64,000 nt of DNA from Cystobasidiomycetes sp. EMM_F5 (Eukaryota): positions 186,001 to 250,000 of the forward strand of contig JBPGPT010000011.1 of NCBI GenBank assembly GCA_051047955.1, given 5' to 3'. The notes under the pieces were generated by a model, which searched no databases, was not told where the DNA came from, and worked only from the letters and a program-made list of their open reading frames with translations. A program made the position numbers and the translations under genes. This document shows, piece by piece, positions 45,377-62,354 of the stretch (the stretch's first letter is position 1; each line of letters starts with the position of its first letter).

Positions 45377-46227
45377 CTATTCCTCTTGAACGATGTTCTC
45401 CTTGGACGATACGTAAACACCTGTGATCAGACAGATCAGTCAGAATCTAATAACGGGTGTTGGTGAAGCAGCACGCACCGTCCAAGAATTTCCGGATATC
45501 CTTGTTGCGCACCAAGCACGCGCCGTGAATGGACGCCGCAGATTGGGAGACATTCTCAATGTCGTTGCCTGAGGTGATCGGCGCCGAAGTCAGTATACTG
45601 TGCACTCGATGTCACTACCAATGTCTGCTCACCCTCTACCCAGAACTCATCCTTTTGGTTCTTTGCCTCGGAGATCTCTACACCCTCGAGCATGTCTACG
45701 TGCCTCGCGAGCTTCTCCCCCAAAAAGTTTCTAATCTCGACCTTGTGTCCGTTCTCTTGAATGATGATGTTGATGGGGAAATGCGCATAGACGGAACGGA
45801 GCTTGTATCGGAATCCCTTTGTGACTCCGGTAATCATGTTTTCGATGAGGGATCGTACTGTTCGCAGGCAGGCATTGTGCTTGCGGCCTCCGTGCCACAC
45901 AGCAAGCTTGACCTTGATATCCCTTCCTTCAGCCTTGGGCTTGACTATCCTCAAATCCATATCAATGTGTTTGATGGACTGTCGGGAACGTCGAGGTCGG
46001 TATACGATGTCGTCGCGCAAGTCGTAGCCACACTCTGCCAGCTTACCTTGACCAGCTTTCCTCGTGGCCCTTCTACAGTGATCGTTCTCGCCTTGATCTC
46101 GAGCTTGACGTCGCTCGGGACGGTGATCTCCTCATCCTTGTAGATGTCCTTCCTGCAACATCATTCCGCCGTCGAATCAGAATGGCGGTTCTCTGGCAGT
46201 TCCCTCGTTCACATTCTCAACTCACAT
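45377..46227 (-). CDS. RPL9: 60S ribosomal protein L9 (uL6)
   Basis: [92 protein letters not shown]. Confidence 0.97.
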
Positions 46228-46492
46228 GCTGTAGGATGGAACACTACGAGTCAGTTGCTGAAGTACTTGTATGCTGATGTTGGCCACTCACATTAACCTA
46301 TCGTATCAAGTCGGGAATGAAACGAAATCGAAGCGCCGGTATCAGCCTTGTCGGTATTCGAAACAGCGGGTCGACGACAGCAGCAGTGCTCACGGTGTAC
46401 AGATTTGGGTGCGATAGTGCGATCTCTGCACCTTCGAGGCTTGGGACTCGCCTGGGTCCAGGGAAGATTTGTGATCGCCGAATTTTTCCCTG

Positions 46493-57450: not shown

Positions 57451-59387
57451 TCACCGCTGCTGATCTTGCTGTGCCTGCAATCGCTGCTCCATCACTGTTA
57501 AACGACAAGTTGATTATCAGCAACGTCTATGGATGTATACTGTCCACAAATGCTCGACGCACCCTTCAAGCTCTCCTCACGGGCAAGCAGTTCCTGACGC
57601 TTTTCCGAAATCTCGCGTTGCACCTTGAGTTCAATCTCCCGCAGCTTTTCCTCTTCCTTTCGGAGCTGCTCCTCCTTGAGCCGGACAGACTGCGTTGCCA
57701 TCTCTTCTGGGTTGATGGATGTGTTGGACATGTCATTGTTGCTGTGCGCGCCTGGGCTTAGAGCGCCTCCATCTGCTCCTGCACCGTTTGATCCGTTTGC
57801 CGAACTGATATTAAGACCATTGACGGTACGAGACAGCTTCTCGGTACGGTAATTTTCGTACAAAAAGTCATGCGTGATTTCCTTGAGATCAGTCAGATGC
57901 GTATTGAGCAGTGCCGATCGGAGACGTGCAAAGTCGCTATGCTGAGGGTTATCGACTTCCACGATACCCCACGGGTAGCGACGTGCTCGAATGACTTCTC
58001 CACCACCAATATCAATCTCCTCTTCGCTTCCAACAATTGCAAAAGGTAGCAAAGCCCGCAACTCGCTATTGTCGGTAATGGTGTCTTCGTCGTCTTCCTC
58101 CACGTCATAGGGAAAGTTGTAGATGGGAATGCCATAGTGCTCAATGTCTTCCATGATCTTAAATTCAAGTTATGAGACCTTCTGATGTTGCAGACTGGAC
58201 TAGACGCACTCTTTGCTTGAACCCAGCTAGCTCTTGAGGTGTCAAGCTATCTGCCTTGCCAATCACTGGAATGACATTGACGCGAGGTGATAGCCGGCGC
58301 ATCAATTCAATATCCATCTCTCGGAGACTGCCATACAAAATTACGTCAGACTGGGCATGTTTCTAGCATAGCATCTGCTCGTACTGATGGCCAGACGGAG
58401 GGATAAAGTAGAGAAGTGCATGTATACGATTGTCGCGGAACCGAGGATTACGTTTGATTCTGCTCTCCTCTGCCAGGATGTCATCGTATTGACGTTCCAG
58501 GTAGCCGACAATGTCTTGGAAGCTGTGAAAATATATCGATAAGCCAAGTAGTCCTTTCCTGTGCTGTAGCCTGAGAGCTGATTTACGAGTCGCTGCTGTC
58601 TATCGCATTGCCAAAGCCCGGTGTGCTTTGTGAATGTTAGCCGAACAGGCTAGTCTGCAGCAGAGCATGCGAGCTCACTCGACTACGGTCAGAGATATTC
58701 TGACACCCTCTTCCTCCAATTCTGAGCGGGATATGCGAGTAGTGTGAGCGGAGTGTAGTGATAGCCCATCAGACATGAGACATACCGACAGTATGAGGCT
58801 GTAACGCAAAGTTTGCCTTCAGTGCGGGCGAGAGGTCTTGCAGACTGATGCTCACCTTGATCTTTAGATCAGGAGAGTGGTCTCCGACATTGTGGTTCAG
58901 GACTGGCGTCTCGCACAGCGTGTTGACAAAGGTTGTTCTGCCAGTTCCCGATGCGCCTGTCGACCAAGCGCTCTAGACATCAGCATTCAACACCGATACA
59001 GTCTGTAGACGGGTGCGCTCACCGACTGAGCAAGTGCAGCGTCCAATGCAGCCAACGGAGATTCCCGGTGGCACAGGTCGCGTGTCAGATTAAATTGCCC
59101 TTTCGCAACAACACGGGCACTCACCGACTGAGCACCAACGCAGTAGCCGTACAGACGGAGCATCAGCACATCATCAGCGCAGTCGCAGCTCAATCAGCCC
59201 ACCCATCAGCGTAAACTGGAGGCCTGTTCGCCGTTTGAAATCGTCAGTGACCACCGCGACCACGGCCAAACGAAGGCCCACCCTTCTTTACATTCTTCCT
59301 GCGACTGGGTATGGACGTCAGCGAGTTGTTGGCAGCGTACGGCGAGGCTGAGCGGGGCGAAACGGGCGACGCAGCGTGGGCAAACAT
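57451..59387 (-). CDS. CDC11: Septin, Cdc11-like
   Basis: KKGLQFTLMVVGASGTGRTTFVNTL (after microexon splicing), DTPGFG, RDNRIHALLYFIPPSGH, VNVIPVIGKADSLT, RRYPWG, HDFLYENYRTEKLS and a C-terminal coiled coil. Confidence 0.9.
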
Positions 59388-59698
59388 GGTCGACGTTGTC
59401 CGGGAGAGAGGGTGAAGGGGCAGCGGGCAGGATGATGGATAAATGCAACTCACCTCGGAGCTGGAGCCATACTGTCACTACCGCAGTCTGATGGAAATAT
59501 ATTCGCGGTGTCCGCCAAACATGCGCCAGTCCTGCTCAGGCTCGCGGCTCGCCCAGCTCCTGAGCAACCGTCCAAGGGGTCCAAACGCGGCAGGCACAGC
59601 AAACACTTGTACACTTGCAAGAAAGACTAGGCTGCATTGCAAAGACCAACACATACAACAACCATGTACTGCTGATTACCCCACGCCAGACCCTTTGC

Positions 59699-62354
59699 TC
59701 ATCCCTGCCGACTCTGCTGCGCAATGAGATTCAATGCAGACCCGCTCTTGAACCAGCGCAACTGATCCTGGCTCATCGTATGTGCGACCGGAATCTCTAT
59801 CACGTCATTAGGATTGTCCCGCTTCTGAACGCGAAGCTTGAGCTGCACAGACTCGTCGCCCCGCAGCAACTGCGTCAAGCCAACAGTCTCGATAATGTCA
59901 CCAGATCCAATCTTGCTGTAGTCGCCCTCTGGATCAACAAACGTGAGAGGAAGCATACCCTGCTTCTTCAAGTTGACTTCGTGAATCCGCGCATATGCCT
60001 TTGCAACAATCATTTTTGCACCAAGGAAGCGTGGTTGTAGGGCAGCGTCTGAAGAGCAGGCCAAACTTAGCACTCTCCTCTGCTTGTGAACGAGTCATCG
60101 ACTTACGTTCTCTCGCACTGCCCTCACCGTAGTTCCAGTCAGTAACGACGAGCCAGGGTTGCCCGCGAGCCTTCCAGCGTTTTGCCATCTCGGGAACTGT
60201 AGCAACTTGACCGACTGAATCGCCATAGTCCAGAGCCTGGTTGATTTCGCCAGTCTCGTCATTGGTCGATCCAATGAGCGTATTTTCGGCAATATTAGAC
60301 AAGTGGCCTGCAAAAATGACGTGTATGCGTCAGCCCTCTTCATGACGACTCCGTCAGAGACGACCTCACACACCCTTGTACTTCAACCACGGTCCAGCCG
60401 CAGATATCTCGTCTGTCGTACACTTGCCTCTCACTCTCAGTAGACACCTTACATTCGTAAATTCCGTCTTGCCGTTAGGATCATCGAGCTGCTCTTGCGT
60501 AAAGTGAGGTTCGAAAGCTTGCAACAATTCCAACCGCGAGCTTGACGGATCGACCACAATTTCGGCACTCGCATCCGGCTCCGGGTTTGGTCTAGGTATA
60601 AAGCTCGTTTCCCCTTGAGCAAACCCTTGCTCGGGCAATTCAATACCGGACGGTGGATCAAACATGAATGGCTTTCCGTCCTTGTCTAGTAGTGAGTCGG
60701 TCATGGGATTGAACGACAATCGGCCAGAAAAGGCCATGGCGGTCACAATATCGGGAGAGGCCAAGAAATTCATCGTCTTCTTGTTGGCGTCGTTTCGGCC
60801 TCGGAAATTTCGGTTGAAGGATGTAAGGATCGCATTCTCTTCGCCTTTGCAGTCGCTGCGGTCCCATTGTCCGATGCATGGACCACACGCGTTCGTGAGA
60901 ACAGTCGCACCTACGTTCTCCAAAGTGGCCTTCAGCCCATCACGCTCGATAGTCGCATTGATCAGTTCAGATCCAGGTGTGCACATGAATGGAGTTGCGG
61001 CTTTAAGGCCTTTGGCTTCTGCTTGTCGCGCGATTGAAGCTACGCGTGTCAAGTCTTCGTATGATGAATTTGTGCATGAACCGATGAGTGAAGCAGAAAT
61101 GGTATCTTTCCACCCCTTTTCGCTAACGAGCGATGCAAACTTGCTGAGTGGTGTCGCGAGATCTGGTGTGTGCGGCCCATTCCTGTGGCAGAAGTGATAC
61201 AATCAGTCGATATTCCGAAAAGTCCTGGCTAGCCTGCCTACAAGTATGGCTCCAGCTCTGACAGGTTGACGCTTATATGTTGATCGTATTCTGCACCGTC
61301 ATCCTTCTGCAAGAAACCTTGTGCTGCAGCTTCATCCGCCTTGTTGGCTACCGGCCCTCGGCCAGTAGCGTGCAAGTAGGAGCGCATGCTGTCATTATAT
61401 GGGAAGCAAGACGTAGTCGCGCCAACTTCTGCTCCCATGTTGGCAATCGTAGCCAAGCCGGTACAAGACTGGTTGGCTAGCCCCGGGCCGTAATATTCGA
61501 GAATGTGGCCAGTACCGCCTTTGACTGTCAATTGGCCTGCAATATGTAGAATAAGGTCCTTTGGCGTCGTCCAGCCCGACATCTTGCCAGTTAATTCGAT
61601 ACCAATCATTTTTGGTGCTTTCAGTTCCCAAGGCGTGTTTGTCATTGCATCGCTGGTCCAAAAAACAGTGTGTGTCAGCATAATGCATGCGTATACGAGG
61701 ATGCAGTATTTACACAGCATCAGCTCCTCCGACACCGATAGCAATAGCACCCAATCCGCCGGCGTTAGGAGTATGACTGTCACACCCAAGCATGAGCAGC
61801 CCTGGTGCGGAGTAATTCTCCAGAACGATAGAGTGAATGATACCAGATCCCGGTCCCCAGAATTCTATCCCAAACTTGCGAGCTGCAGATTCCAAGAACT
61901 GGAAAACCTCCTTCTCTGATGCTTCTGCCCGCTTCAAGTCTGCTTCTGCACCAGCATATGCGGAAATGAGATGGTCGCAGTGAATACTCGTTGGCACCGC
62001 AGTCCGTTTTGCGCCAGCGCTATTGAATTGCAGCAATGCCATCTGAGCAGACGCATCTTGCAGCGCGACACGGTCGGGGTGTAATTTTAGATATGCCTGT
62101 CCACGGAGCTTTCCAGCTTCGATGCGAGTCAAGTCGTCTACATTGCACAAATGGGAGTACAGAATCTTCTCTGCCAGCGTAAGTGGACGCTTGAGGATTG
62201 CTTTGACTTGCTCGAGTTGTTTCAAAAGATGCGTGTATGGAGGAATCAGGGTCGAGCAGTCTTTGTTGGGCAGCACAGAAGTCGTGGCATAGGCGCGCCG
62301 GCTGGCTGCACAGGCCAGCGACCTGCGCAGCACACCTCGGGAGATCATCGACAT
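59699..62354 (-). CDS. ACO2: Mitochondrial aconitase-family protein, Aco2/homocitrate dehydratase type
   Basis: [88 protein letters not shown] and [14 protein letters not shown] suggests the ACO2 rather than the ACO1 clade. Confidence 0.85.

Follow-up and report, generated by a model that had tools for sequence, protein, structure and literature searches.

The window analysed here is a stretch of 64,000 nucleotides from Cystobasidiomycetes sp. EMM_F5 (contig JBPGPT010000011.1, positions 186,001 to 250,000 of the forward strand), and all positions given below are counted from its first letter. A gene for a Cdc11-type septin occupies 57451-59470 on the minus strand and consists of 13 exons. All 12 of its introns have GT-AG borders and are 52-149 nt long, and the joined frame comprises 385 codons with no internal stop and no frameshift. 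Exon 1 (59470-59454, 17 nt) carries the ATG at 59470-59468 and ends at a gtgagt donor, and exon 2 (59304-59282, 23 nt) ends at a G/gtgggc donor, the slash here and below marking an exon boundary. They are followed by exon 3 (59223-59203, 21 nt), by two exons of 3 nt each and by the P-loop exon, exon 6 (58956-58856, 101 nt). Exon 7 (58798-58786, 13 nt), which encodes PHTV and the first base of a Glu codon, had already been noticed in the first-pass annotation, an earlier reading of the same DNA. The remainder of the coding sequence lies in exon 8 (58721-58679, 43 nt), exon 9 (58625-58587, 39 nt), exon 10 (58522-58385, 138 nt), exon 11 (58327-58210, 118 nt), exon 12 (58157-57563, 595 nt) and exon 13 (57494-57451, 44 nt, stop codon included). 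Introns and small exons are strongly biased towards the 5′ end of the gene: the first 181 coding bases (58786-59470, minus strand) are spread over seven exons of 17, 23, 21, 3, 3, 101 and 13 nt, and the last exon but one alone holds 198 codons. Intron 6 (58799-58855, minus strand) is 57 nt long, a multiple of three, and is free of stops in frame, so that its retention would add 19 residues right after the P-loop exon and leave the frame intact. Another open reading frame is present on the minus strand at 59690-59900; it ends in a TGA at about position 59700, some 230 nt ahead of the ATG of the septin gene.

The assignment of the gene to the Cdc11/Spn3/AspA group of septins is supported by its closest relatives and by solved structures. 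When the predicted protein is aligned with the septin annotated in Cystobasidium minutum MCA 4210 (P0001), 328 of 386 columns are identical (85%). The two sequences differ only in two variable stretches and at the C-terminal end, with no difference at an exon junction, and the N-terminal 39 residues of the model are identical to those of the orthologue, including a pair of valines (V-V) that will be considered below. Compared with named proteins, the large exon finds its best match in C. minutum (84% identity), which points to a Cystobasidium-like yeast of the Pucciniomycotina as the most likely source of the DNA. The same exon is recognised by the Pfam Septin profile (PF00735) with an E value of 3.2e-38 and a score of 132 bits (cut-off 26.2); taken by itself, the P-loop exon matches this profile weakly (E = 0.0011) and lies under the cut-off. 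The best matches of the septin are named 'septin', 'Cell division control protein 11', 'spn3' or 'AspA'. The CDC11 label proposed from the sequence at first reading is likewise backed by the best solved-structure match of the C. minutum orthologue, which is yeast Cdc11 (5AR1; E = 1.8e-90). A protein search with a longer contiguous stretch around the P-loop exon found nothing closer than C. minutum and no protein of the same species.

The region between exon 3 and the P-loop exon is the subject of this report. Exon 3, with its flanks cag/GCCTCCAGTTTACGCTGATGG/gtgggc, encodes LQFTLM and the first base (G) of Val-21 and ends in CTGATGG/gtgggc. Intron 3 (59202-59128, 75 nt) is followed by exon 4, a TCG triplet at 59127-59125 (microexon 1) that supplies bases 2 and 3 of Val-21 and base 1 of Val-22 and is flanked as gctcag/TCG/gtgagt. 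Intron 4 (59124-59026, 99 nt, donor gtgagt) separates it from exon 5, a second TCG triplet at 59025-59023 (microexon 2) that supplies bases 2 and 3 of Val-22 and base 1 of Gly-23 and is flanked as gctcag/TCG/gtgagc. Intron 5 (59022-58957, 66 nt, donor gtgagc) then leads to the P-loop exon, whose first bases from 58956 are GCGCATCGGGAACTGGCAGA and whose first codons, completed by the preceding G, read (G)ASGTGRTTFVNTLC. The predicted joined mRNA therefore reads CTGATGG-TCG-TCG-GCGCATCG across the microexons, and the three phase-1 introns of 75, 99 and 66 nt split three consecutive codons, those of Val-21, Val-22 and Gly-23. The first-pass annotation had placed exon 3 and both triplets on the minus strand exactly where we find them and had stated that joining the pieces gives LM-V-V-GASG in frame, which is so; its coordinates and sequences needed correction at a single base, since position 58957, taken there as the edge of the P-loop exon, is the last base of the intron and the exon begins at 58956.

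A canonical acceptor and a canonical donor directly flank both triplets (cag/TCG/gtgag[t/c]), and CTGAT or CTGAC branch-like sites lie upstream. In intron 3 such CTGAT sites are found 35, 46 and 66 nt from the acceptor, and in intron 5 one CTGAT is found 23 nt from the acceptor. The sole canonical branch site of intron 4 is a CTGAC located 59 nt from the acceptor, compared with 11-47 nt in the other introns of the gene that have a canonical branch site. Both microexon acceptors are the first AG to be met, with 59 AG-free bases before the acceptor AG of microexon 1 and 72 before that of microexon 2, while gaps of at least 55 nt make up only about 2% of the inter-AG gaps on the minus strand. A functional acceptor whose branch point is distant would need AG-free zones of this kind. 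At both sites three coding bases lie between AG and GT, and neither is thus a zero-length recursive splice site. An arrangement as a stwintron, in which one intron lies within a splice signal of another, was considered and rejected, as each of the six splice sites is found undivided in the genome. The predicted RNA fold of 58940-59225 is marginally more stable than that of shuffled sequences (z = −2.09; 4 of 200 shuffles fold equally well), a difference to which we attach no significance. The donors of introns 2 and 3 (59276-59286 and 59197-59207, minus strand) share an 11-nt repeat with one mismatch (GAAGG/gtgggc and GATGG/gtgggc), and both are of the weaker gtgggc type.

Intron positions were compared with those of relatives, a check that the first-pass annotation had proposed for orthologous CDC11 genes, by scanning metagenome contigs with the large exon, which yielded 80 loci. 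The closest sequence found, L001, is 87% identical on the large exon. It matches the septin model in one uninterrupted alignment over residues 22-383, without any of the seven downstream introns, and therefore looks like a transcript. Its bases 1-76, by contrast, are closed in the septin frame, containing stops, and end in accaacag/TCGGCGCC (accaacag/TCGGCGCCTCTGGA). The acceptor of this unspliced intron lies exactly at that of intron 4, between G and TC of the second Val codon, and the second TCG runs on into the P-loop exon, intron 5 being absent. The presence of a retained intron in an otherwise spliced contig may point to an intron that is slowly removed at this spot. L007 is a genomic contig with 69% identity. 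It reads ATGGTGGTTG/gtgagt, followed after 306 nt by ttgcag/GCTCGTCC, and thus has an intron that agrees with intron 5 in position and phase; introns 9 and 11 likewise have counterparts at the same positions in L007. The two relatives therefore carry different introns of the cluster, L001 that of intron 4 without intron 5 (the contig starts within the intron) and L007 only that of intron 5. Of the three intron positions the comparison thus recovered two, through the acceptor of intron 4 and the position of intron 5; the position of intron 3, and a gene with both microexons, were not seen among the relatives compared. Among the 80 loci, 24 fit a strict P-loop pattern, and in 22 of these VV or VC directly adjoins the P-loop, such loci being transcripts or genes without introns at this spot; transcript-like contigs of relatives, for example L004, L005 and L006, have two Val codons at the microexon positions. 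Most of the other 56 loci are uninformative here, since their P-loop is itself interrupted by an intron (GxSGxG / RTTF) or lies outside the sequence covered. Comparison of intron sequences added little. The L001 intron bears no convincing similarity to the introns of the window (the best is intron 3, with a score reached by 28 of 500 shuffles), and the top score of the L007 intron, also with intron 3 (reached by 5 of 200 shuffles), was disregarded, since by position the L007 intron corresponds to intron 5.

The first-pass annotation had remarked that the two microexons sit in the same context, and this proved to extend over 15 identical nucleotides, tgctcag/TCG/gtgag, at each. These belong to an 18-nt direct repeat on the minus strand whose two copies, 59117-59134 around microexon 1 and 59015-59032 around microexon 2, are 94% identical, with one mismatch, and are spaced 102 nt apart. 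Two copies of the 11-nt core CAGTCGGTGAG are present in the 64-kb window, each of them at a microexon, against an expectation of 0.06, and none of 100 shuffled sequences had two or more. The shared context of the microexons is more than chance. The sequence YAGNNNGTRAGY is also in excess, with eight occurrences against 3.8 expected (one of 100 shuffles had eight or more). One of the six sites away from the microexons is an ordinary exon end in a gene for ribosomal protein uL6/L9, and another may give the AT of the start codon of the same gene; at the remaining four sites in the window, the search for further 3-nt exons met no coding context. The uL6 gene lies at approximately 45630-46230 on the minus strand (Pfam Ribosomal_L6, E = 3.5e-13), and its start codon is split. 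The site concerned (46220-46231, minus strand) reads cag/CAT/gtgagt and supplies AT, the next exon beginning G AAG GAC; this CAT is either another 3-nt exon, following an intron in the 5′ UTR, or the plain end of the first exon.

One explanation of the common context is that the pair arose by local duplication, in tandem or by gene conversion, of a unit made up of an intron end, TCG and an intron start, so that the repeat would be the trace of that event and not a functional signal common to both sites. The 18-nt repeat with its single mismatch and 102-nt spacing fits such an origin, as does the finding that relatives carry subsets of the three introns, and with the 11-nt core held fixed the similarity of the flanks reaches a score of 32, which is modest, 25 of 2000 shuffles attaining it. 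The bases shared are, however, mostly splice consensus (cag, gtgag) and fixed codon bases. Away from the junctions introns 3, 4 and 5 score 17, the highest score, 20, being that of introns 6 and 11, and are thus no more alike than other pairs of introns in the gene. The position of intron 5 is moreover old, being common to this gene and to its 69%-identical relative L007, and if a unit holding a single TCG had simply been duplicated in tandem, the number of valines would have changed, so that the ancestor would have had a non-canonical strand. We consider a duplication origin rather doubtful.

Whether both triplets are used as exons was addressed by enumerating all chains of GT-AG introns of at least 40 nt, with up to four introns, that lead from exon 3 to the P-loop exon. 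Among the 757 paths, 40 are in frame and free of stops. Only one of the 757 inserts two residues and then Gly-Ala between LM and SGTG, namely the path through both TCG triplets, and the residues that it gives are V-V, as in the annotated septin model of C. minutum; the only other path with two residues turns a P-loop glycine into cysteine. Dropping one microexon keeps the frame, as the first-pass annotation had foreseen, and so does dropping both. Since skipping in frame is possible, the frame alone does not decide the matter, and conservation does. Of the best 120 homologues, 112 fit the P-loop pattern, and the two positions are occupied by VV in 78, VC in 30, AV in one and VT in one, the remaining two having plainly mis-modelled N-termini; of the eight that depart from the pattern, two read MVCG and six are without the region. 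No shorter spacer before the P-loop was found among these 120. Solved septins aligned at the same place read M-IV-G (Cdc11) and M-VV-G (SEPT7). An intact strand and P-loop, that is a hydrophobic strand, two residues and GxxGxG[KR][ST], requires the inclusion of both microexons. In Pseudohyphozyma bogoriensis the annotated orthologue (P0010) has an unrelated 12-residue N-terminus joined straight to GQSGTGRTTF. This looks like a gene model from which small exons further upstream were lost, at an intron directly preceding the P-loop.

The unique splice path, the match to the C. minutum orthologue, the conservation among homologues and the introns of relatives together uphold the central proposal of the first-pass annotation, that both TCG triplets are exons and give two Val codons. 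We consider it very likely that both are genuine 3-nt exons that are normally included and that belong to a functional gene for a Cdc11-type septin, and with much the same confidence we infer the inclusion of both in the mRNA; the two microexons are probably constitutive. The main mRNA could instead skip one or both of them, to give LM-V-GASG or LM-GASG with a shortened strand before the P-loop, or the three forms could be regulated alternatives. All three are in frame and free of stops, exons of 3 nt are at the limit of what the spliceosome can handle, according to work on plants (PMC4674806), and the retained intron of L001 suggests that splicing is inefficient here. Against this, 110 of the 112 homologues that fit the pattern keep two hydrophobic residues at this place and none is shorter, V-V is part of the 39-residue N-terminus that is identical in the closest orthologue, and strong signals with long AG-free zones at both triplets would not be kept without use. 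Skipping in the main mRNA is thus improbable, while skipped forms are plausible as a minor isoform. That the motifs are chance matches within a single long intron, in a gene that is decaying or has been misassembled, is barely credible, given a complete 385-residue frame over 13 exons that is 85% identical to an orthologue and has neither stops nor frameshifts, and a core motif that is expected 0.06 times in the window yet is present in two copies within 102 nt, at the very place that requires it.

In fungi, short introns are recognised as a unit across the intron (intron definition). The introns of the septin gene, with lengths of 52-149 nt, are probably each recognised in this way, and under intron definition the length of an exon matters less than the strength of its signals. 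Each microexon would be served by a cag acceptor, the first AG to follow a CTRAY branch site, and by a strong gtgag donor, the G at position −1 of the donor being the last base of the microexon itself. The U1 snRNP on a donor located 3 nt past the previous acceptor should clash with the factors bound to that acceptor. From the crowding expected at this spacing we infer that the three introns would leave one at a time. The simplest order would run from 5′ to 3′, each step adding a TCG to the growing upstream exon and presenting the next G/gtgag donor, and stepwise removal of this kind would resemble recursive splicing with a footprint of 3 nt. The retained intron of L001 and the detained introns found at plant microexons fit a slow, ordered removal without demonstrating it. 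It is possible, as a tentative extension of these considerations, that the order of removal is obligatory, each step adding a TCG and rebuilding the next donor, and that what makes this possible is the common 15-nt context, as a dedicated signal or as the trace of intron copying.

The inclusion of both exons, if confirmed by cDNA, would make this locus an extreme natural case, in which two 3-nt exons follow each other directly, 246 nt hold six splice sites, and each of three adjacent codons of an essential cytoskeletal GTPase is split by an intron. The locus would then also offer a compact substrate for studying splice order and steric limits in a fungus that uses intron definition. For annotation the consequence is practical, as a gene finder that drops the microexons produces an in-frame septin that is two residues short before the P-loop, with no stop to flag the error. 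The first-pass annotation had expected annotation to miss exons of this kind, an expectation to which the C. minutum model, which does contain V-V, lends no support. The differing intron positions of the relatives bear on intron evolution. Comparison of L001 and L007 alone would suggest that an intron had slid by 3 nt, and the present arrangement indicates that neighbouring introns, with no sliding one, can underlie 3-nt offsets between species. Should the cluster indeed be spliced in an obligatory order, differential loss from it would mimic 3-nt 'intron sliding' between species, which would provide a concrete and testable source of apparent sliding and a test of how close to one another two spliceosomes can work. 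The gain lies in an instructive example and comprises no new principle.

Classical recursive splice sites leave nothing in the mRNA, whereas each step at the septin microexons would leave three coding bases, and the resemblance between them is therefore one of mechanism only and not of membership. The likeness is that in recursive sites and RS-exons, too, an acceptor adjoins a donor and splicing regenerates a 5′ splice site for the next step (PMC6224609). Our searches of the literature on tandem, consecutive or adjacent microexons, on 3-nt exons and on septin microexons returned no tandem (identical) pair of 3-nt exons and no septin microexon, and a search on Cystobasidium gene structure returned nothing relevant.

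Very small exons are documented in animals and plants. Animal microexons of 3 nt include those of RPS24, where consecutive microexons of 3, 18 and 22 bp are found, of Drosophila hth and of human MAP4K5 (PMC12207440, PMC7392893, PMC8632122). As in the septin gene, a 3-nt exon in these genes adds or removes a single codon, and RPS24 has several microexons in a row; the animal exons, however, are mostly alternative and belong to genomes with long introns and exon definition, whereas those of the septin gene are probably constitutive and lie between introns of 66-99 nt (PMC12207440, PMC7392893, PMC8632122). Plant APC11 and VPS55 contain constitutive exons of 1 nt, and rice has adjacent microexons of 5 and 12 nt (PMC4674806, PMC8831610). 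The septin microexons resemble those of plants in being coding, probably constitutive and far below the size suited to exon definition, and in both systems relatives differ by fusion of a microexon to a neighbouring exon (PMC4674806, PMC8831610). Plant microexons are also missed or misannotated in genome annotations (PMC4674806, PMC8831610), and the introns that flank them are more often detained (PMC8831610). In contrast to the septin pair, the plant microexons have been validated by RT-PCR and are not identical tandem copies, and none of the plant cases described in the sections available has three introns in three consecutive codons (PMC4674806, PMC8831610).

A close parallel is found in another basidiomycete, Coprinopsis cinerea, in which long reads revealed 13 exons of 1 nt, 57 of 2 nt and 27 of 3 nt, the latter in 26 genes (PMC12230235). 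As in the septin gene, these are internal exons of at most 3 nt in a basidiomycete with short introns (PMC12230235). The presence of 27 exons of 3 nt in 26 genes implies that one gene has two of them; a word search of the supplementary text did not identify that gene or show its two exons to be adjacent, and a precedent for the septin pair may be present there, while the passages available to us describe no two adjacent identical 3-nt exons (PMC12230235). Leaving out a microexon can break the gene model in C. cinerea, unlike omission of the septin microexons, which introduces no stop and leaves a shortened conserved strand (PMC12230235). The C. cinerea exons rest on long-read RNA, whereas the septin microexons are predicted from genomic sequence and comparison with relatives (PMC12230235). 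Exons of at most 3 nt are thus already established in fungi, plants and animals, and the septin pair is an unusually tight instance of them.
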